Below, piece by piece: positions 8,475-36,243 of a stretch of DNA of 59,883 nucleotides. How positions within the stretch are numbered: the stretch's first letter is position 1; each line of letters begins with the position of its first letter. The translations under genes and the position numbers were made by a program. The notes below the pieces were generated by a model, which had not been told where the DNA came from, did not search any database, and saw only the letters and a program-made list of their open reading frames with translations. The DNA comes from Candidatus Levyibacteriota bacterium (GTDB taxonomy: Bacteria; Patescibacteriota; Microgenomatia; Levybacterales; UBA12049), in assembly GCA_016182205.1 (NCBI GenBank), contig JACOXW010000013.1:1-59883 (forward strand), read 5' to 3'.

Positions 8475-9557
8475 ATGTATCACACTGTTTTCTCACCGAT
8501 GTTACCTATAAAATCGTTTTATCTTTATCTAACGTTGACACTTTTGACGCTTTTTACCATAATGACTGATACAATCACCTATCCGGGATTTCTGAAAAAA
8601 CATGTTCTACTAGACACAAATATTCTTTTCATTTTATTTCTTGTAACCAGCGTATACATTTTTTTTCTTCCGGGAAAGATAGATTTCAGCACATTACAAC
8701 CGATAAAAAAACTTAATTCTTTCATCTTACTGCCGGTTATAGCTGTTTTCACTTTTATTTTTACCTTTGCAGATTTCTTCCTCTATCCTAATTTTACCTT
8801 CAGCACTTTCCACATTCATTACTCACAGTTTCTTTATCTGCTATTAATAAGCACCGGACTTGCTCTAGTAACCATTGACAGACAGTTATTGAAAAGAAGA
8901 AAACATGCTTTAATTTTTTCCGGTGCGTTCTTCCTGCTTTTCATCGGAATTTGTATCTGGCTTTGGCCCAACGGAGCCTTTTTTGAGTTGAGCAAGGAAG
9001 ACCGACTTTTTGAAAATTTACAGTTTTTATTTTTCTCACTATCCACTATTCTTGCCGCACTTATAACCAAACATTTTTTCAACAAAGATCTAAAGCACAT
9101 AGCTATCCTCTTTTTTTTCATAACAATGTTTTTGTTTTTTGTTTCGGGAGAAGAAATAGCATGGGGACAACGGATTTTCCATATCGAATCCCCTGCTATC
9201 ATGAAGGAGAACAACACCCAGCATGAGCTAACACTGCACAACCTAAAAGCTATAAACCAATACCAATATCTTTTATACATGTTACTCGGCGCCTATGGAG
9301 CATTTTCATGGATAATTTCCAGCTTCTTTCCGTACAAGAAAATACGGGACTTCCTTCACAATATTTCAATCCCATGGTTTGCCGCACCGTATTTTTTGCC
9401 GATTTTTCTTTTCTATCTATACGTCAACTTTATAGGCGGTAAACGCTGGGAATGGCAAGAATTTTCAGAACTGCTGTTGGCACTAGGAATTACAATCTTT
9501 CTTCTCGTTACTTATATAGCATATAAACCTACTAAATTGAAATTACTTACCGGGTAA
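8475..9557 (+). CDS. hypothetical polytopic membrane protein
   Basis: 360-aa ORF, very hydrophobic (about 9-10 helices), host-like AT-rich codon usage. No motif recognised. Confidence 0.5.
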   Translation: MYHTVFSPMLPIKSFYLYLTLTLLTLFTIMTDTITYPGFLKKHVLLDTNILFILFLVTSVYIFFLPGKIDFSTLQPIKKLNSFILLPVIAVFTFIFTFADFFLYPNFTFSTFHIHYSQFLYLLLISTGLALVTIDRQLLKRRKHALIFSGAFFLLFIGICIWLWPNGAFFELSKEDRLFENLQFLFFSLSTILAALITKHFFNKDLKHIAILFFFITMFLFFVSGEEIAWGQRIFHIESPAIMKENNTQHELTLHNLKAINQYQYLLYMLLGAYGAFSWIISSFFPYKKIRDFLHNISIPWFAAPYFLPIFLFYLYVNFIGGKRWEWQEFSELLLALGITIFLLVTYIAYKPTKLKLLTG

Positions 9558-28811: not shown

Positions 28812-30002
28812 TTAGATATTTTTTTCTAGAGCTTTTTTAACCGCTCCAAATTCATCCCACGGTTCTTCGCCATTTCCATAATTCATCGATTTCTCATGCG
28901 CTTTCCCTGTTGTGATTACTAAATCGCCTTTTTGCGCTATAGAGATGGCTTTGGCAATTGCCTCTTGTCTGTTGGGAATAATAAGAAGCGTTCCGTTTTC
29001 CATGCGTTCTTGCGCATCTTTAATACCATTTATAATGTCTTTCATAATGGAATCAATTGATTCCGTACGCGGATCCTCAGACGTCAGAACAACAACATCT
29101 GCATATTTGGCAGAAATAGCTCCCATTTTGGGACGTTTTGTGAAATCTCTTTGTCCCGCACTGCCAAAAACGTGAATGATTCGCTTTTTTACCAGCGGCC
29201 GCAGCGCGCTTAAAACCTGCTCAAAAGAATTCGGCGTATGCGCAAAATCTATCATCACCGTAAAATCCTTTTTATAAACTATTTCTTCACGCCCAATCGG
29301 CGCCTCAAACGTCTCCACTCCTTTTCTAATGTCTGCATCGGAAATACCCAACTGCTTACAGACACTGACAGCAGCAAGACAGTTATAGGTATTGAACTCT
29401 CCGATGAGTTTTGTTTTGAAAGGAAAAGTATCAGTACTTATGTCTGATCCTTTGCTTTTTCCATATGTAATTACTGCTTTTTTCTTTTTCAGTAATTTAT
29501 TTATCAAATCATAGGATTCGTCGTCTTTATTTACAATCGCCAAATCTGCCCGCTGTAAGAGTTTTGCCTTTGCTTTTACATAATTTTTATACGTCTTATG
29601 ATAATCTAAATGCTCATGCGTGATATTGGTAATAACGCCAATGTTAAAGCGCACACCGTAGACTCTAAATTGATCCAATCCATGCGAGGTAACTTCCAGT
29701 ACGAGATATTCTGAAGCTTGTGATGCTTTTTTTATAAATCCCTGAAGCGGCCAGGAAGCGGGATTTGTGACATGAAACCCGACATCATATTCTTTTCCGC
29801 CAATAATAGCCCCAACTGAGGAGATCATTGATGCTTTCTTTCCAGACGTCTTGAGTATGTGATAGATCAAACTGACAGTCGTTGTCTTACCATCCGTACC
29901 GGTAACGCCTATCACTACCAATTTCCGGGATGGGAAACGGTAATAGATATTGGCCAAAAGGGCAGTAGCTAGGTGATATTGATTTTTTATCCACTGCCAC
30001 AT
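28812..30002 (-). CDS. murE: MurE-type Mur ligase lacking the N-terminal (UDP-binding) domain
   Basis: P-loop VIGVTGTDGKTTT already at residue ~32. DFAHTPNSFEQVL (MurE-type DxAHTP). C-terminal TGKAHE. Only 396 aa. Confidence 0.8.
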   Translation of the reverse strand: MWQWIKNQYHLATALLANIYYRFPSRKLVVIGVTGTDGKTTTVSLIYHILKTSGKKASMISSVGAIIGGKEYDVGFHVTNPASWPLQGFIKKASQASEYLVLEVTSHGLDQFRVYGVRFNIGVITNITHEHLDYHKTYKNYVKAKAKLLQRADLAIVNKDDESYDLINKLLKKKKAVITYGKSKGSDISTDTFPFKTKLIGEFNTYNCLAAVSVCKQLGISDADIRKGVETFEAPIGREEIVYKKDFTVMIDFAHTPNSFEQVLSALRPLVKKRIIHVFGSAGQRDFTKRPKMGAISAKYADVVVLTSEDPRTESIDSIMKDIINGIKDAQERMENGTLLIIPNRQEAIAKAISIAQKGDLVITTGKAHEKSMNYGNGEEPWDEFGAVKKALEKNI

Positions 30003-30060
30003 AGGTGTATTATACTTGTTTTTCTTTCAATTCACCATCTAGAAAACACCCTATAAGAAT

Positions 30061-30090
30061 TTGCTTGTCCCTGCATATTTCTGCTATAAT
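30061..30090 (+). promoter_or_regulatory. sigma70-like promoter TTGCTT-N18-TATAAT facing the foreign operon
   Basis: -35 at 30061-30066 and -10 at 30085-30090, in AT-rich host-like DNA about 195 nt upstream of the GTG at 30285. Confidence 0.4.
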
Positions 30091-30168
30091 GCCATCGCTT
30101 TCAGCAATTCTCACCAAGACGACGCGTCCTGGAATTTACAGAGGATTTTTGAAAGTGATCTTTGACAA

Positions 30169-30179
30169 GTGAGAGAGGA
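30169..30179 (+). repeat. left copy of an 11-bp perfect inverted repeat GTGAGAGAGGA
   Basis: The reverse complement occurs at 34236-34246. The pair brackets the three island genes. Confidence 0.35.
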
Positions 30180-30284
30180 ACTCTTGGTGGAGGAAGACTC
30201 ACGTCAACCGAAATCAAGAGAAACTTAAGAACAAGGAGGTAGAAGACATACTACCTGCGTATCTACAAGCGAAAGGAGTAGATC

Positions 30285-31406
30285 GTGTCGCAAAAACACC
30301 CGTGGGGAATTCGTCTCCGTGACAGGCTGAAAGAGTGGGGGCCAGAACATGGATACCCTCAGCTCTCAATTCTAGGAAGGGAGCTGGGAATTCCCGATTC
30401 ACCGTGGAACGATATCCGTTCTGCCGGTGCAATTATCGCCACCCCGAAAGATGCGTATGCGCGCATTTTCTGGAGGACTGGCCTTTCGGAAGCCGACCCC
30501 CGTTCTATACCACCTCGAGTCAGAGCCTTCCCCAAAGGAAGTAGCAGGGAAGAACCACGAGCGTGGTCTCAGAGCCAATGGCAAGAGTGGGTGAGGAAGG
30601 AATCAAGCAAATACAGCCGCGGCTCAGGTGTACAACCCGAAGCCACAGACACTTCCAAACCTTTACTCTCCCCTCCAACCGAGCCCGTCATGCCACAAGC
30701 GGAGCCACAACTACCTGTCCATGAGACAGGCTTTGTTGACGAGCTCCTCGGTCTGTTCGGCAAGCACATCGCGCGTGCAGCAGCTCCACATATTGTCTCC
30801 GAAATCGAGCAGGCGCTTAAACGCCAATTCGATGAGCGAGAACGGTTTGTGGAAGTAGCAACGCACGCAGTCGCCGAGGTAGTACCGAGTCTGCAGGCAG
30901 TCATCGAGAGAGTGCGAAGCGAGGGCGAACAAACCCAAACACAAGCATTCCCGACTGACGCCGTCGCAGACGCGGTCGCCAAAAGCCTCATCCAGTACCT
31001 GGAGGAGCAGGAAGTTCCTAACCGCCAGGGGAAACCGACCCTTTTGAGCATAGGAGACCTGGCTGAGGAGTTGCATAAGCAACTTAGCGAAGCTGTTGAG
31101 GCAAATGAAGGAGATCAACGAGATCTTCTCACCTCATACGGCATCGAGCTCAGCAGACTACTCCCATTACTAAAGCGACTGCTCAGCAAACAAGAAGAGG
31201 AGGCGATGTCCCACGACACAGCAAGCAGGTTGGATCGTCAACTCGGAGTGATTCTCAAACGGGCGCTGAATGGTACCCCTGAGGATCGCGATGAGTTCAC
31301 CCGTCGATACGGCCGGCTCGGAAGGCACGTTCCCGCACTGGAAGTGCTCACACGAGACGACCGTGAAGGTCGCGAGAACGCAGTAGCGTTACTTGCAAGG
31401 AGCTAG
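30285..31406 (+). CDS. island gene 1: hypothetical protein with N-terminal HTH-like segment, Pro/Ser-rich linker and helical C-terminal domain
   Basis: GTG start with GGAG SD (30275-30278). 373 aa. N-terminal IRLRDRLKEWGPEHGYPQLSILGRELGIPDSPWNDI resembles an XRE-type HTH (tentative). No catalytic motif seen. Confidence 0.7.
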   Translation: MSQKHPWGIRLRDRLKEWGPEHGYPQLSILGRELGIPDSPWNDIRSAGAIIATPKDAYARIFWRTGLSEADPRSIPPRVRAFPKGSSREEPRAWSQSQWQEWVRKESSKYSRGSGVQPEATDTSKPLLSPPTEPVMPQAEPQLPVHETGFVDELLGLFGKHIARAAAPHIVSEIEQALKRQFDERERFVEVATHAVAEVVPSLQAVIERVRSEGEQTQTQAFPTDAVADAVAKSLIQYLEEQEVPNRQGKPTLLSIGDLAEELHKQLSEAVEANEGDQRDLLTSYGIELSRLLPLLKRLLSKQEEEAMSHDTASRLDRQLGVILKRALNGTPEDRDEFTRRYGRLGRHVPALEVLTRDDREGRENAVALLARS

Positions 31407-31408
31407 GC

Positions 31409-33355
31409 ATGACCAGCTATACAGGCAAGACCTCGATCAGCCCAGCCCATGCCATCATGCACCTCGCACGACTACAGGTGGGCGTGGTACCGGTGGCTGA
31501 AGAGGCTATCGACAATGGCGTCGATGCCGAAGCTACGACCATCTGGCACGTGATCGAGCCAGGCCGGATGATGATCATCGATAACGGCCACGGCATGCTG
31601 TCGACCATGTTGGCAGCTGATGCTGACCTGCTGCAGGAGCTCTGGCAGAAGAAGCTGTCAGGAGAACTGCCAGCGGACTTTGACGTCCGTTCACAGATTT
31701 CCCCAGCGTCGCGCCGGAGTCTGCAGTGGATGCAGGAGTCAATCGGGTTCAGCGCAAAGCTTCCTGATGAGCGTGATACGCTTGGGACAAAGGGTCTCGG
31801 CGGCACGGTCTCGTGGAGAAGTGTAGCGCGGCGAGCTGTTTGGACAACTCGTCCCAACGACGAGCTGGCCGCAGCTATGCCAGATCTCGCTTCGCCGACT
31901 CCTGTCTGGCGCATGGAACCACCCACTGCTGAACAGCTTGCGCGAGGAGATCTTGACTACTCAATCGTCGAGGTTTCTCCGAACGCTTTGCAAAACCCGT
32001 ATGGTGGCGTTCTCGCCTCAGGCACAGCAGTCGAAATCATGGATCTTGACCCGGAAGCAGAGCGGGGCCTTCGGCCAATGGCGTTTGCGGAAGCCTACCG
32101 TATGCGCTATGGAGGCTTTGTGCGCGCTGGTCGGATCACGATTATCATCGTCGACCGCGTCACTGAAGAGGGTCGCAGAACACCAAATGGACGGGAGATT
32201 CTCGTTCAGCCCTCTCAGTATAGAGGAGCTGTCATCCTCGAGACCGAAATACGCGTTGGCAAGTACACCGCGCGCATTGAGCTCTTCTATGATCCCAAGG
32301 GACGCGGCACCTATCCGTTCCTTCGTCGCCAAGGGATCGATCTCAAGACCACCATGGCAGTGCTCGTCTCAGAGCTCCCGCTTCTTCGCGGTCCACTCAT
32401 TAGTGGAAAGCTTTCAGGTTTCGTCGCGTTTCCCAACGCGCCGGATACCGAGGCGCCCTGGACCACGGACAAGCTCAAGCCGCTGGATTCTCCTCTGCGC
32501 AGCCAATGGGAGCGAGCAGTTGCTTCGCTCATCCCAGATCTTGAGGCTGCCATGGAGGCGATGGACGAGAAAGTCCGAAGCCGACAGATGGAGACAGTGA
32601 CCAAGCAGGTCACTGATGCTGCACTTGAGGCGATCGGGGATTTGGAAGCCTATCAAGGCATCCTGCCTAATCTCGTACGAAATCGCACATCAGGCAAGAG
32701 CAAGAGCAAGAAGAAGCGCCAACCGCGGCCCTTGGATAAGGTGATCGCCGTCGTTCGCAACGAACATAACATGGGCGTTGCCGGCGCGATTCTGGAACTC
32801 CACCGCGGTATAACATGCGTGAACCGGTTGGTGACCGGACCAGGCGGAGTTATCTCCTTTGGTAAGCAGCCTCCTGGCCGCTACCGGATGAAGTTGACTC
32901 CACCAAATGGGGCAAAAGTCCGCGCTGGTGAGGACACCTTCGTCTTCAATTTAAGCCCCAACCAACCGGGCTGCCGGATTCCATTCCATGTGGTAACCGG
33001 TGAACCGGCTCCACAACGGCCAGGCAGGCTCCCTAAGCTGGAGCTTTGGCTCCACCCATGGGAGAATGTTGGCGAACCATTCCGTGCTGATCGGCTCGCC
33101 AGATACGGCCAAGTCGAGATCAACGAGCAGCACGACGCAATCGCAGAGGCATATCGCCGAAGCGATGAAGAGCGTGTGGCCACACTGACTGCGCTTTACA
33201 CCAGTATGGCGCTTGCTGGTCATGCCTTCCATGGCACACCAACATCAGTGGTCAATGCGCAGGCTGCAAGCCTTTTCAACCGTATGCTGGACATCACACT
33301 CCAGGATATGGAGACAAGGCAGCGAGCGCAGGCTGCTCGCCGAGGCCGGAAATAA
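31409..33355 (+). CDS. island gene 2: GHKL-superfamily (MORC/MutL/HATPase_c_3-like) ATPase with C-terminal beta-sandwich-like module
   Basis: Bergerat-fold motifs in order: E32-x3-N36-x2-D39-A40 (EEAIDNGVDA); D58-x-G60-x-G62 (IIDNGHGM); G126-TK-G-L-G-G132; GTAVEIMDL. AAGGAG SD. Start is 2 nt after the gene-1 stop. Residues ~445-520 follow a CarboxypepD_reg-like pattern (GVAGAILEL...GPGGVISFGKQPPGRYRMKL). Confidence 0.8.
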   Translation: MTSYTGKTSISPAHAIMHLARLQVGVVPVAEEAIDNGVDAEATTIWHVIEPGRMMIIDNGHGMLSTMLAADADLLQELWQKKLSGELPADFDVRSQISPASRRSLQWMQESIGFSAKLPDERDTLGTKGLGGTVSWRSVARRAVWTTRPNDELAAAMPDLASPTPVWRMEPPTAEQLARGDLDYSIVEVSPNALQNPYGGVLASGTAVEIMDLDPEAERGLRPMAFAEAYRMRYGGFVRAGRITIIIVDRVTEEGRRTPNGREILVQPSQYRGAVILETEIRVGKYTARIELFYDPKGRGTYPFLRRQGIDLKTTMAVLVSELPLLRGPLISGKLSGFVAFPNAPDTEAPWTTDKLKPLDSPLRSQWERAVASLIPDLEAAMEAMDEKVRSRQMETVTKQVTDAALEAIGDLEAYQGILPNLVRNRTSGKSKSKKKRQPRPLDKVIAVVRNEHNMGVAGAILELHRGITCVNRLVTGPGGVISFGKQPPGRYRMKLTPPNGAKVRAGEDTFVFNLSPNQPGCRIPFHVVTGEPAPQRPGRLPKLELWLHPWENVGEPFRADRLARYGQVEINEQHDAIAEAYRRSDEERVATLTALYTSMALAGHAFHGTPTSVVNAQAASLFNRMLDITLQDMETRQRAQAARRGRK

Positions 33356-33378
33356 CGTATCCGCCATCCGGGAAGGAG

Positions 33379-33410
33379 GTTGAGGATCCATCCTCAACTT
33401 TCCTTTTCCC
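33379..33410 (+). terminator. intrinsic-terminator-like hairpin between island genes 2 and 3
   Basis: Perfect 8-bp stem GTTGAGGA-tcca-TCCTCAAC (33379-33398), extendable by G-U pairs, followed by CTTTCCTTTTCCC. Confidence 0.4.
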
Positions 33411-33432
33411 GAGTGTAAGAGGGAGGGTCCAG

Positions 33433-34113
33433 ATGGACCAGGTAGACCCAGTACAACAGGCCCGACAGGTCATCGCCAACATGGAAAGCATGATCGGTGG
33501 CTTGAAGGTTCCCCGAGATCAACTGAATCAGCAGATACGGCGACTGGAGGACTCGCGCCGGCGTCTACAGCAGCAGCTACGGGATCTCGAACACGCGAAG
33601 CGATCAGATCCTCCAGATGTCCTCAAGATCGTACGCGAGACTACTGCGTACATGGTCGAAGTCGCGGCTGAGCTAGAGCAACTCTATCAGCCACCGGCTG
33701 GAACTCGCCGTCGGGGTACTTCTCGTGCGCCGGCGTCTGTAGGTGAGAATCCGATACCGCCAAGCGGTGGTCCGGCAGGTGATACACCACCGGTAATTCA
33801 CCTGCGAGAAATTGCCCCTGTCCCTCGGAAGGTGCTTTCCCTTTTGGCTAAAGGGAGTACCCCTCCAGCAACACTGGATGAAGCCATCCTGGCTGCCTAC
33901 CCTGAAGGGCTCAGTACACCCGAAAAGCTTCTGAAAGGAGGTCTCTCGGGAGCGATCACAGGCCTGATTCGGCTTCGCAATAATCCAAGCGAGGTGGAAT
34001 CGGCGCCGACGCGCCTTCGCCAGCTCTACAACGAGCTTGGTCTTCCAGGTCGTTGGGAAGAGGTCGAAACAGCGCTTCGACAATGGGGTGTTCTCAAGGA
34101 CTCAGCCGCGTAG
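33433..34113 (+). CDS. island gene 3: hypothetical coiled-coil protein with Pro/Gly/Arg-rich linker and helical C-terminal domain
   Basis: GGAGGG SD. 226 aa. Heptad-like N-terminus (QLNQQIRRLEDSRRRLQQQLRDLEHAKR). No enzymatic motif recognised. Confidence 0.65.
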   Translation: MDQVDPVQQARQVIANMESMIGGLKVPRDQLNQQIRRLEDSRRRLQQQLRDLEHAKRSDPPDVLKIVRETTAYMVEVAAELEQLYQPPAGTRRRGTSRAPASVGENPIPPSGGPAGDTPPVIHLREIAPVPRKVLSLLAKGSTPPATLDEAILAAYPEGLSTPEKLLKGGLSGAITGLIRLRNNPSEVESAPTRLRQLYNELGLPGRWEEVETALRQWGVLKDSAA

Positions 34114-34128
34114 CGGCAAACAAGAGGG

Positions 34129-34164
34129 AGCCTGTGATGGTTCAAAGGCGAGCTGTCACAGGCT
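34129..34164 (+). terminator. hairpin downstream of island gene 3 (possible terminator, no U-tract)
   Basis: 9-bp perfect stem AGCCTGTGA / TCACAGGCT with an 18-nt loop (3 further pairs with G-U), 16 nt after the stop. Confidence 0.3.
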
Positions 34165-34235
34165 ATTCCTCGAGAAAGAACTCGAAATCGTAAGCCAATT
34201 TGCAGGCTTATACCTTTCATTTTCTTTCTCATCCA

Positions 34236-34246
34236 TCCTCTCTCAC
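34236..34246 (-). repeat. right copy of the 11-bp inverted repeat (TCCTCTCTCAC on + strand)
   Basis: Reverse complement of 30169-30179. Confidence 0.35.
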
Positions 34247-34301
34247 TGTTTTTTCTTACGGTTTAAGATTTTTCTTGAAAAGTAAGGAGAAATACGAAAA
34301 G

Positions 34302-35941
34302 CTATTCAGTTGGGGGTATGTGGGTCAGAATGTCTTTTGCGATGTTGAAAAAAATAGGTGCTGCGGTTTCCGAGCCGTAAATAGATGTTGTCGGACGATC
34401 CACCACTACAAGCATTGCGAATCGCGGATTATCAGCAGGAGCAAATCCGATAAACGACGCGATTGTTTTATCCGCATCATAATGTCCTGAGATAGGAATC
34501 TGGGCAGTTCCGGTTTTCCCGGCAATTCGATACCCTTTTATCCGTGTCCACTGCGCTTCACCTTTATTTACCGCGTTCACAAGCATTTCTGTCATTACTT
34601 TCGCAGTGGCCCCAGAGATTGGCCGATCCAGTATTTTTCAATTTTTGAAACCACATGCGGCTCCATACGGTATCCTCCATTTGCGATAGCTGAAAAGCCG
34701 CTTAAAAGACCAATCGGTGTTACGGAAATCCCCTGTCCAAACCCGGCCGTGGCCAGATCTATCGGGTACCACTCGTCTCTTTGACGCAGTCCGGGTGCGA
34801 TCTCACCCTGAAGATCAATGCCCGTTGCGTCTCCGATCCCGAATTTATGAAAATAAGAAAGAGTCTTATCAAGTCCCATTGACTTTACTACATACACCAT
34901 ACCGGTATTGTCCGAATGCTGAATAACTTCTATCATAGAACTATTCTCTCTATACTTGTTATTCCAAGTACGTATTTCATATCCCCCAATCTCGATGGGT
35001 TTTGCGCAAATAGGACATTTAGTATCCGGCTTTACTGTTTTACTATCTATTCCCGAAGCCATAACAAGTGCCTTAAACGTAGATCCCGGCTCGTAAACAT
35101 TGGTGATAAACGGATTTTTATAAAGGCTCCCGTCATACTCCTGATAGTTACGTTGATCAAATGAGGGGTAATTCGCAAGGGCTAGAATATTCCCACTCTT
35201 AGGATCTATAACGCCCACCATTCCGCCTACGGCACCGTATTTTATAATTCCTTCCTCCAGTTTTTTTTCTACAGTATACTGAATCGCCCGATCAATACTG
35301 AGCACCAATGAACGACCGCTTTTCTCTCGTATATTATCGTTTCGCCTAGATACAATCGGTCTTCCCAGCGCATCACGAATCTGAATAGTGGTAATTGTTC
35401 TGCCCTTTAACTGCCTGTCATAATATCCCTCTAGCCCAAAATAACCTTTATCTTCTCCCAATTCATCTTTTCCCACAAAACCCAATAGCTGTGCTGCCAT
35501 AGAGCTCTCAGGATAAAACCGAACTGACTCTTCCTCAAAACCCACGCCAGGAAAATGCATTTGCTCAATTTTTTCTTTTACTTTTTCATCAACCCCGCGT
35601 TTTATCGGTACCCAAAATTTGTCTTTTTCCAACTGTGCACTAATGGATGCCCTGTCTTGTTGCAATAAATCCGAAAGAAGCAATGTTGTTTTCTCTTTTT
35701 CTTTTATTTCTTTAGGATTAGCATAGAGTAGATAGGAAAGTTTGTTTGTTGCAATAGGAAACCCGTCGGATGTTTTAATTTCGCCTCTTTTGGCCGAGAG
35801 TGTAATAACGGTACCATATTGTGATTTTCCAAGCGTTGACAATTCATCAGCTTTTACCACTTGCCAGTAGAATAAACGGACGATAATGAAAAAAAATGAA
35901 AAAACAAAGAGGAAAAAAGTTATTTGTAATCTTTGCGTCAT
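34302..35941 (-). pseudogene. ftsI: FtsI/PBP2-type class B penicillin-binding transpeptidase, interrupted by a 1-nt frameshift
   Basis: N-terminal TM helix. SxxK (GSTFK) and SxN (HSDN) lie in the 448-aa ORF; KTG (AGKTGTAQ) lies in the 97-aa ORF. The frames rejoin if one A is added to the A5 run (rc of 34634-34638), giving ...HVVSKIEKILDRPISGATAKVMTEML... This could be a sequencing error. Confidence 0.85.
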
Positions 35942-36243
35942 GGCCGTACAGCAAGAGGTAGCGGTGCGCCAATATAGACTCTCGACTTAGCCTCCACAAA
36001 CCCCATTTCCGAAGCTTTTGAAGCTATGTTATATAAAGATGAATCAGACAACACTTCTTCTCGCAATAATGTATTGTCTCGTTTATAGACTGCGATTTCT
36101 TTTTCCAGCTTTGATAGTTGTATCCCTGTTGTTGAAAGACTATTGGAGATACTCACCTGAACAATAGATAAAATTATAATAATAAAAAAAATAATAGTGA
36201 TAAAAAAAACTGGTTTTTTCATATAATTATCAAAGCTTTTCAA
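35938..36243 (-). CDS. FtsL-like bitopic cell-division protein
   Basis: 101 aa with one TM helix followed by a coiled-coil (LSKLEKEIAVYKRDNTLLREEV). Lies between rsmH and ftsI. Confidence 0.55.
   Translation of the reverse strand: MKSFDNYMKKPVFFITIIFFIIIILSIVQVSISNSLSTTGIQLSKLEKEIAVYKRDNTLLREEVLSDSSLYNIASKASEMGFVEAKSRVYIGAPLPLAVRP

Follow-up and report, generated by a model that had tools for sequence, protein, structure and literature searches.

The 59,883-nt stretch of Candidatus Levyibacteriota bacterium DNA analysed here (the window; contig JACOXW010000013.1 of assembly GCA_016182205.1) carries a GC-rich block (30091–34250) of three plus-strand genes, A, B, and C, located between ftsI and murE. 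The trio is conserved and syntenic across other loci, and the compositional unit is exactly the trio. We regard the block as one copy of an unnamed, horizontally exchanged A-B-C cassette that is built on an ATP-gated clamp and probably takes part in genetic conflict, an explanation that we hold with middling confidence and whose functional part we infer. An earlier description of the window made from its letters (the sequence-only reading) had proposed a compositional outlier that forms a self-contained transcription unit, and this claim is upheld by the present analysis.

The block has a GC content of 0.562, compared to 0.394 for the rest of the contig (standard deviation of 0.035 in 1-kb windows), and climbs to 0.55–0.60 between approximately 30.2 and 34.2 kb. 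The GC step described in the sequence-only reading is real, although the value of about 35% given there for the flanks is slightly low. The GC content at third codon positions (GC3) is 0.54, 0.61, and 0.53 for genes A, B, and C (g1, g2, and g3), whereas the 29 host genes have a GC3 of 0.34 ± 0.02 with a maximum of 0.39. The composition jump is also present at synonymous sites and is therefore not only an amino-acid effect. The block is located, as originally placed, between the start of murE at 30002 and the stop of ftsI at 34302, both on the minus strand, and the trio is the only non-overlapped plus-strand coding between approximately 11.4 and 59.9 kb, which extends the roughly 27 kb first claimed. 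The proposed block start at 30091 does not coincide with the start of a gene but falls just after the −10 element of a promoter. The block has only three substantial open reading frames (ORFs), and searches of Pfam, PHROGs, NCBIfam, and PADLOC assigned none of them to an integrase, transposase, phage structural, or replication family, in agreement with the earlier observation that the block lacks mobility genes.

An exhaustive HMMER search with gene B identified 148 proteins, of which approximately 100 are full-length (627–700 aa), with 25–39% identity. Word-indexed protein searches with B, A, and a 65-sequence alignment recovered only the window's own proteins, and the sole close relative of B in the word-indexed collection was found on Logan contig L001. 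Genomic context was read for approximately 11 of the roughly 100 family members. Each of the 10 other distinct loci has a homologue of A (244–312 aa) directly upstream of B, with E-values of 1e-43 to 1e-97 against the family hidden Markov model (HMM), and a homologue of C (217–253 aa) is located directly downstream of B in eight of these (L047, L048, L049, L053, L054, L056, L058, and L084). The co-occurrence of the three genes elsewhere, which the sequence-only reading had named as a check, is thus observed. The stop and start codons of B and C often overlap or abut, and the cassettes range from 3.4 to 4.2 kb in size. Two loci are without C: the contig of L050 ends before it, and C was undetected in L059–L061. 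L057 is a duplicate contig of L056 that ends inside C, and a scan of Joint Genome Institute (JGI) metagenomes gave one locus, L084, in which B and C are followed by rpsB, the same site as in L054. The B proteins are 27–42% identical to one another in pairwise comparison across loci, with a star-like pattern. The source names attached to family members are Levybacteria, Woesebacteria, and, once, “Pseudomonadota” (P0004, on a 2.5-kb contig). The cassette is absent from 43 murE-anchored loci of GTDB species representatives, approximately 15 of which are Levybacteria-like. As stated in the sequence-only reading, the combination does not correspond to a named system, since PADLOC, Pfam, PHROGs, and NCBIfam gave nothing above threshold.

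The Woesebacteria-type loci L059–L061 (P0025 cluster) have a different arrangement, in which A and B are followed by three minus-strand genes of unknown family (200, 197, and 159 aa; approximately 3100–5500 in L059) with slightly raised GC. These loci may represent a variant of the cassette with different partners.

The GC-rich segment corresponds to the trio and nothing more in every locus, and in each of the six further loci tested the trio has a higher GC3 than its neighbours. Cassette and flank GC are 0.57 and 0.40 in the window (cassette GC3 of 0.53–0.61, host GC3 of 0.34), 0.58 and 0.45 in L047 (GC3 of 0.67 and 0.48), 0.54 and 0.39 in L048 (0.54 and 0.31), 0.58 and 0.46 in L049 (0.61 and 0.47), 0.48 and 0.40 in L053 (0.43 and 0.31), 0.53 and 0.48 in L054 (0.55 and 0.49), and 0.44 and 0.375 in L056 (0.40 and 0.32). 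For L058, where total GC only was determined, the cassette has 0.54–0.61 and the flanks 0.35–0.43. None of the contexts read places a homologue in high-GC DNA, and no donor was found. Possible causes of a constant GC excess over such deeply diverged copies are an unsampled reservoir, GC-biased repair at an often-exchanged locus, or selection.

The ftsI-murE gap of Levybacteria is a small variable region inside the dcw cluster, where the same core genes flank different content. In Levybacteria-like loci, the gap is 44–57 bp in L002 and L005, 1–1.7 kb in six loci, and 2.2, 3.9, 4.3, 6.0, and 7.2 kb in others, with unrelated cargo. Over L002–L013, L020, and L027, this cargo has host GC and includes Mur-ligase-like, YdjM, and DUF192-like genes. 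It also encodes a ResIII/SNF2-type helicase with several helix-turn-helix (HTH) domains, a type IB topoisomerase, MgsA, and proteins of the LAGLIDADG/HNH-repeat, Bro-N, and Fic/DOC types. The premise of the sequence-only reading that ftsI and murE are normally adjacent does not hold for Levybacteria, given a gap of 44 bp to 7.2 kb that contains varied accessory genes. On the 29-kb contig L058, a cassette occupies the site used in the window, here in sense orientation (mraZ-rsmH-ftsL-ftsI-[A-B-C]-murE-murC-murB-murA-glmU-...-glmS, all on one strand), with a B protein about 30–31% identical to that of the window. On the 116-kb contig L047, which belongs to a distant host, the order is mraZ-rsmH-ftsL-ftsI-tRNA-Glu-[A-B-C], followed by a cation ATPase. 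The cassette is thus directly 3′ of ftsI in three of the 11 distinct loci and exactly between ftsI and murE in two of them, while the other eight loci have it at unrelated sites. By an estimate that was not computed, three of 11 loci beside one gene is far above chance in genomes of approximately 1000 genes. Together, the variable gap, the same-site cassette of L058, and the position after ftsI in L047 point to a recurrent landing or variable site and not to a unique disruptive insertion.

Comparison of hosts and cassettes leads in the same direction. The host proteins of the window and L058 are 50–66% identical (ftsI 66%), but the identity is only 39% for A (over 106 aa), 31% for B, and 27% for C; between the window and L047, ftsI and B are both 33% identical. 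The divergence of the cassette does not follow the divergence of the host, which makes it likelier that cassettes arrived at, or were replaced in, a preferred site independently. An empty-site allele was sought through exact matches to the window murE, of which none is on record, and no close relative lacking the cassette was found, the best murE match being 64% identical at the protein level. Near two of these cassettes there are genes that do not recur elsewhere, namely a tRNA-Glu(ctc) at 8948–9023 between ftsI and the cassette of L047, and an IS200-type Y1 transposase gene (104–646) approximately 6 kb upstream of the cassette of L058. Integration targeted to tRNA genes was considered and rejected because L047 is the only locus with an adjacent tRNA.

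Gene B (31409–33355, plus strand, 648 aa), preceded by a Shine-Dalgarno (SD)-like AAGGAG at 31397, is the gene of the trio with a recognisable fold. It matches Pfam HATPase_c_3 with 28.2 bits (cut-off of 25), and the GHKL assignment of the sequence-only reading is confirmed by this match, by N36, and by D58. The AlphaFold model of B, built with a 65-sequence alignment, is confident (predicted local distance difference test, pLDDT, of 93.8; predicted template modelling score of 0.79) and comprises a GHKL ATPase domain (approximately 1–215), a middle transducer-like alpha/beta domain (approximately 216–360), a long helix (375–411), a Lys/Arg-rich disordered linker (approximately 412–444, NRTSGKSKSKKKRQPRP), an immunoglobulin (Ig)-like domain (approximately 445–530), and a helical C-terminal domain (approximately 545–647). 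The beta-sandwich at 445–530 matches the SdrD B-type Ig-like repeats by sequence (E-value of 4e-12; PDB profile, residues 451–508). All four GHKL motifs are present. Residues N36, G60, G62, S115, G205, G337, and K355 are invariant in 65 of 65 members, and in motif I (ExxxNxxD) D39 is found in 64 of 65, D58 of motif II (DxGxG) in 54 of 65, and G126 and G131 of the Gly-rich lid (motif III) and T206 of motif IV (GT) in 64 of 65 each. At the level of sequence, B thus has a complete GHKL nucleotide-binding site and an invariant lysine in the next domain. The catalytic-base position 32 is occupied by E in 37 of the 65 members, by Q in 25, and by another residue in three, the window copy having E32 (31502–31504). 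In characterised GHKL ATPases, an E-to-Q change at the catalytic base keeps ATP binding and slows hydrolysis. The E/Q split suggests that B may be a nucleotide-gated switch and not a motor, with ATP binding mattering more than fast turnover, and that ATP may be bound but only slowly hydrolysed by many members.

The structure search for B, also proposed in the sequence-only reading, returned Hsp90, MutL, topoisomerase II ATPase, and RIIA proteins at a Foldseek probability of 1.00, as expected of the Bergerat fold, and the viral library gave Hsp90-like, topoisomerase II ATPase, and RIIA proteins. The best template modelling (TM) score normalised to the target was 0.58–0.60 for the N-terminal 40-kDa MutL fragment LN40 (1b63/1nhh), which includes the S5 domain. 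In PDB profile searches, B matched MutL, MORC, and HtpG over residues 20–68, with MutL best (E-value of 5e-9), and matched the MORC2/3/4 chains only over residues approximately 6–68 (3e-6 to 3e-4). The nearest curated model of the GHKL domain is the BbrUII/HgiDII restriction enzyme, found for seven of nine members with a best E-value of 1e-8 and scores that fall far short of the family cut-offs, and matches of B members to MutL models reach 1e-7 at best, far below the cut-offs. With PADLOC, two of nine B members matched TmtA (6.5e-5) and two of nine matched REase_II (3e-3), at the level of GHKL motifs only. Regulation of the CapK/CapS kinase-repressor type was considered and rejected, as CapK is a SpoIIAB-like kinase with STAS partners and belongs to a different GHKL branch.

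Gene A (30285–31406, plus strand, 373 aa) has a GTG start and an SD-like AAAGGAG at 30272, and ends 2 nt before B. The tight packing reported in the sequence-only reading, with this 2-nt gap and an SD-like site before each gene, is retained. The N-terminal domain of A (approximately 105 aa) is conserved, with W18, Y58-A59, E69, ‘EADPRTIPPR’, and ‘RAW..Q..W’, and is followed by a variable linker and a helical C-terminus. As the family alignment begins at residue ~5 of A, the GTG at 30285 is the true start, and the 238-aa NCBI model (HYT10_01560) is truncated and omits the conserved N-terminal domain. A helical motif of the C-terminus, ‘G(T)xEDRDxF...HG..L..LLP.L..LT.D...RE’, occurs twice in tandem in the window copy (31044–31403), and this duplication explains its length of 373 aa compared to 244–312 aa in the homologues. 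No significant match to A was found in Pfam, NCBIfam, PHROGs, PADLOC, or the PDB. The “HTH-like” label of the sequence-only reading is not confirmed by any tool: nine members have no Pfam HTH match, neither the full-length nor the N-terminal profile matches the PDB, hhalign gives a probability of 0.2% against the 434 repressor HTH, and the single-sequence AlphaFold model has a pLDDT of 46, with four short helices in residues 6–65 at pLDDT <50. Gene C (33433–34113, plus strand, 226 aa; SD-like GGGAGGG at 33419) encodes a coiled-coil-like N-terminus, a basic low-complexity linker rich in Pro, Arg, and Ser, and a conserved helical C-terminal domain that ends in L..WGV. Like A, it is without a significant match in any of these five collections; weak matches of coiled-coil type were seen in Pfam and the PDB.

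The cassette also appears to have its own transcription signals. A promoter-like site on the plus strand (30061–30090), read from the sequence, consists of TTGCTT (30061–30066), an 18-nt spacer, and the extended −10 element TGCTATAAT (30082–30090), with transcription predicted to start near 30097. The site was missed by a consensus promoter scanner, as its −35 matches three of six bases. An element of the TGnTAnAAT type is found at a comparable position upstream of A in 8–9 of the 10 other cassettes, 40–88 nt before a motif that we call M2, and in most cassettes the extended −10 is located approximately 135–200 nt before the start codon of A. The 5′ leader of the window cassette (30091–30284, plus strand) is purine-rich and approximately 190 nt long, and its sequence ATTCTCACCAAGA (30107–30119) is common to L058. 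Neither the block nor the leader has an Rfam match, and RNAalifold gave no consensus fold with an alignment of four sequences; a riboswitch-type leader is not supported by these two analyses, the second of which is limited to four sequences. At the 3′ end, a terminator-like hairpin (34190–34211, plus strand; GTAAGCCAATTTGCAGGCTTAT) is followed by a T-rich tract, and a second hairpin lies at 34128–34164. The terminator is a weak call, since terminator-like sites are no more numerous here than expected from shuffled sequence.

Motif M2 (30160–30179, plus strand; CTTTGACAAGTGAGAGAGGA) lies within the leader, and its 3′ part (30168–30179) forms the left arm of a perfect inverted repeat of 12 nt. 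When each whole locus was scanned on both strands with a leave-one-out weight matrix, the window site ranked first of 119,732 positions. Upstream of A, the motif ranks first in five of the 11 loci, second to fourth in four more, and twelfth in L058, and is absent in L047; the sites were picked by eye, and some selection bias remains in these ranks. The right arm (34236–34247, plus strand; TCCTCTCTCACT) is the reverse complement of 30168–30179 and is located past the terminator, 55 nt from the ftsI stop. The longest reverse-complement match between upstream and downstream regions falls at M2 and measures 12 nt in the window, 14 nt in L049, 12 nt in L053, and 9 nt in L048, each with a different sequence, while 56 non-cognate upstream/downstream pairs have a mean of 8.2 nt, a standard deviation of 1.1, and a maximum of 11 nt. 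As the right arm lies past the terminator hairpin in the three loci having the repeat, a role at the DNA level seems likelier than pairing between the 5′ and 3′ untranslated regions. M2 and its inverted copy may serve as operators, mark where a mobile unit ends, or act as inversion sites. The TTGACA within M2 was considered as a −35 box and rejected, as no −10 element has the proper spacing in any locus, and a leader peptide after M2 was rejected because L049 has no room for it.

From these features, a mode of action can be proposed for the cassette. It would circulate among small, low-GC genomes of the Candidate Phyla Radiation (CPR) type, including Levybacteria, Woesebacteria, and relatives, equipped with a promoter and a terminator of its own and with a long leader that contains a conserved cis motif, and cassettes of the family would have settled in the ftsI-murE interval or directly after ftsI at least three times. 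B may function as a dimeric clamp or switch gated by ATP, much like MutL, MORC, Hsp90, and paraMORC proteins, with its Lys/Arg-rich linker and Ig-like domain contacting nucleic acid or a partner. A possibly binds DNA, possibly recognises M2 and its inverted copy, and would regulate or target B, and C may be a coiled-coil adaptor that likewise regulates or targets B. The role of the cassette would be to restrict or silence invading DNA or to maintain the cassette itself, and is probably not a housekeeping one.

Several results weigh against this proposal. The three proteins contain no recognisable effector domain, be it a nuclease, methylase, helicase, or another, and the window proteins have no system match in PADLOC-DB v2.0.0 (best E-value of at least 0.02). 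Outside the Levybacteria hotspot, the neighbours of the cassette are plain housekeeping genes, and no defence islands were seen among the contexts read, which are a small share of the family. With neither an effector domain nor a defence-island context, the defence role put forward in the sequence-only reading is still an inference. No family member was found in 2.9 million viral contigs by protein scan, exact DNA word, two degenerate motifs, or the N-terminal profile of A, and tblastn of B against phage and plasmid collections gave no match. There is no integrase, transposase, target-site duplication, or consistent tRNA association that would explain mobility, and inspection by eye revealed no duplication flanking the repeats. 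The inverted repeat is absent in L047, L054, L056, and L058, and is present in three to four of the eight testable loci. Moreover, the HTH tests on A gave no support for DNA binding, and the proposal leaves the persistent GC excess unexplained.

The alternatives differ in where they place the origin of the block. Its composition shifts abruptly at both ends, which could indicate an assembly chimera or a binning contaminant joined to a Levybacteria contig, and Logan contig L001 begins just 18 nt inside murE. This origin is extremely improbable, as L001 (SRR12113383, 6225 bp), an independent assembly from a public run, corresponds to window positions 29985–36150 at 99.8% identity. It contains all three genes, the entire right junction into an intact 559-aa ftsI and ftsL, and, on the left side, the whole intergenic region with approximately 300 nt of low-GC flank, to 18 nt inside murE. 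L001 reproduces the block and both junctions and so speaks against the chimera that the sequence-only reading wanted excluded; in addition, L058 has a member of the same family in its ftsI-murE interval and L047 has one behind ftsI, and the same GC step is present at every locus, by which the chimeric origin is largely refuted. A recent transfer from a high-GC organism, such as the host cell of an episymbiotic CPR bacterium, was the idea of the sequence-only reading and would agree with a GC of 56–58% compared to 39% and with the GC3 contrast; a second GC-rich stretch beside a tRNA-Val gene (1–2000) shows that the genome holds other GC-rich DNA. We nevertheless consider such a donor quite improbable, because the members examined are all in DNA of approximately 37–48% GC, none with high-GC flanks, and every readable homologue shows the same GC excess there. 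The promoter (TGnTATAAT), leader motif, and SD sites are common to cassettes in different low-GC hosts, the mutual identity of 27–42% means that the cassettes do not stem from one recent event, and the one member whose source name lies outside the CPR (P0004, ‘Pseudomonadota bacterium’) is on its 2.5-kb contig without usable context.

Other alternatives concern what the trio is for. It is rather unlikely to be a lineage-specific division or envelope operon that is inherited vertically beside ftsI, often lost, and GC-rich through proteins rich in Ala, Arg, Pro, and Glu or through local constraint. The position directly after ftsI in three loci, including that of a distant host, would fit such an operon, as would the constant housekeeping surroundings without a mobility gene, the Ala-, Arg-, and Pro-rich proteins, and three ORFs that are intact and nearly identical in two assemblies. 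However, the trio is missing from all 43 murE-anchored loci of relatives and is at unrelated sites in the other eight loci, its GC3, and not only the GC of the first and second codon positions, is far outside the host range, and B of two related Levybacteria is only 30–31% identical, as low as between unrelated hosts, despite 66% identity in ftsI. B could also be a divergent chaperone of the Hsp90/HtpG type, with A and C as co-chaperones or clients in a protein-folding or stress module. The top 44 Foldseek matches in the PDB are full-length Hsp90, TRAP1, and GRP94 (E-values of 1e-13 to 1e-11), residues 565–629 weakly align to the C-terminal region of TRAP1 (1e-4), and the viral matches include Hsp90-like proteins. 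These full-length matches have TM scores of 0.32–0.38 with a root-mean-square deviation of 14–23 Å, and Pfam HSP90 has no match at E ≤ 1, whereas the motifs ExxxNxxDAGA and DNGHGM and the best profiles are those of the GHKL domains of MutL, MORC, and restriction enzymes. The sensor position of the domain after the ATPase is Lys in MutL and GyrB and Arg in Hsp90, and the middle-domain sensor residue of B is an invariant Lys. As the patchy distribution and GC3 anomaly are also unexpected of a housekeeping chaperone, we find this function quite unlikely. Finally, the trio may be a new autonomous element confined to the CPR, whose own proteins, with no known recombinase among them, mediate its spread, whose co-varying inverted M2 copies are the sites of its insertion beside ftsI and of its inversion, and whose GC richness is intrinsic and maintained. 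Insertion or inversion at the M2 copies would account for the opposite orientations at the same site in the window and L058, but we judge this possibility very unlikely. In a weaker form, the trio would be a CPR-specific immunity system in which a GHKL clamp works with two wholly novel partner proteins.

The host genes on both sides of the cassette show features of their own. The left flanking gene murE (28812–30002, minus strand) has a perfect TATAAT (30010–30015, minus strand) 6 nt upstream of its ATG, no SD site, and a position back to back with the cassette promoter, features that would fit a leaderless murE transcript started at this TATAAT. With this element retained, murE need not be silenced by the antisense cassette. 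The right flanking gene ftsI (34302–35941, minus strand) is split at 34595 in this contig into 34595–35941 and 34302–34595 (ORFs of 448 and 97 aa). L001 differs from the window by three substitutions, one 6-bp indel, and one 34-bp indel, both indels being within ftsI (sites 34319 and 34635). The window ftsI is broken by the 34-bp deletion relative to L001 and also has the 6-bp in-frame deletion; the break may stem from misassembly or reflect a genuine strain variant or pseudogene. L001 starts 18 nt inside murE (29985), exactly at the left junction, and a contig end at this point can mark a branch of the assembly graph, such as population variants with, without, or with an inverted cassette.

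At the edge of the contig, the second GC-rich stretch (1–2000) has a GC of 0.51–0.55 compared to the 0.39 background and adjoins tRNA-Val (2088–2162). It contains minus-strand ORFs for membrane proteins (100–480, 499–1143, and 1236–1643) and is not rRNA according to Rfam. The ORF 499–1143 has a DAFDGPLAR motif and resembles a CDP-alcohol phosphatidyltransferase by eye. Here, too, foreign DNA may have formed an island next to a tRNA gene.

How CPR/Patescibacteria, with their tiny genomes, acquire DNA and defend themselves is poorly understood. The A-B-C trio adds a compact, conserved, and unannotated three-gene module, in which a central ATP switch of the MutL/MORC/Hsp90 class is combined with two partners without known relatives. 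Its composition calls for an explanation, be it a reservoir still hidden, gene conversion that is biased at a hotspot of exchange, or selection, and the ftsI-murE gap may be a small hotspot of accessory genes in a division and cell-wall cluster that is otherwise conserved in Levybacteria. If the trio is a defence or selfish system, it would be a new architecture among GHKL conflict systems and a tractable three-gene construct; a cellular trio would instead be a factor that is specific to the lineage and connected with cell division.

Among known proteins, Hsp90, HtpG, and TRAP1 share with B the full-length Foldseek matches and a weak profile similarity in the C-terminal helices, but differ by the low TM scores, the lack of a Pfam HSP90 match, the MutL/MORC-like motifs of B, and its genomic behaviour as part of an accessory cassette. 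MutL has the same plan of ATPase, flexible linker, and C-terminal domain and gives the best PDB profile matches. The MutL model TIGR00585, however, scores 10.5 bits against a cut-off of 180 and covers residues 29–64 only, no MutL C-terminal dimerisation or endonuclease domain was detected in B, which has an Ig-like insert, and the cassette has no MutS partner. Tiamat (TmtA), a single-gene GHKL defence candidate in PADLOC, has a GHKL domain of the HATPase_c_3 type and was the match of two of nine B members noted above. The window B has no match to Tiamat, the resemblance does not extend beyond the GHKL motifs, and Tiamat is without A or C partners.

Mobile insertion cassettes consist of passenger genes flanked by inverted repeats, without a transposase. 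The trio resembles them in being compact, in having no mobility genes, in its co-varying inverted repeats (12–14 nt in three loci), and in its occurrence at different chromosomal sites. It differs in that its repeats are short and half of the loci lack them, in that the left copy lies in the leader, downstream of the promoter, and in that neither a target-site duplication nor a cognate transposase was identified.

GHKL ATPases joined to an S5 domain occur in restriction and defence contexts (PMC2292703), and anti-phage defence has been demonstrated for VcSduA, a GHKL-nuclease of the paraMORC3 type (Shedu type I-D) (PMC12137116). VcSduA resembles B in its GHKL motifs I–IV and in a clamp-like middle domain proposed to gate a downstream activity (PMC12137116), but is a single protein with a DUF4263 PD-(D/E)xK nuclease, whereas B has no nuclease by Pfam and PADLOC and is always accompanied by A and usually by C. 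The MORC and paraMORC families are similar to B in having an N-terminal GHKL domain with all ATP-binding motifs, a next domain with an invariant basic residue (K355 in B), and a family-specific C-terminal extension, and in being sporadic and laterally mobile (PMC2292703). B may have an S5-like domain, in view of the alpha/beta domain at 216–360 after the GHKL domain, K355 in 65 of 65 members, and the LN40 TM score of 0.58–0.60. The gene neighbourhoods of MORC and paraMORC contain an SF-II helicase, a restriction-fold or HNH nuclease, or a DNA methylase (PMC2292703), which are found in none of the 11 cassette loci, where the partners are A and C, and the extension of B is an Ig-like and helical domain in place of a nuclease or TIR domain. 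As the trio is without a recognisable nuclease, helicase, or methylase, we treat it as working like those families and not as a member of them.

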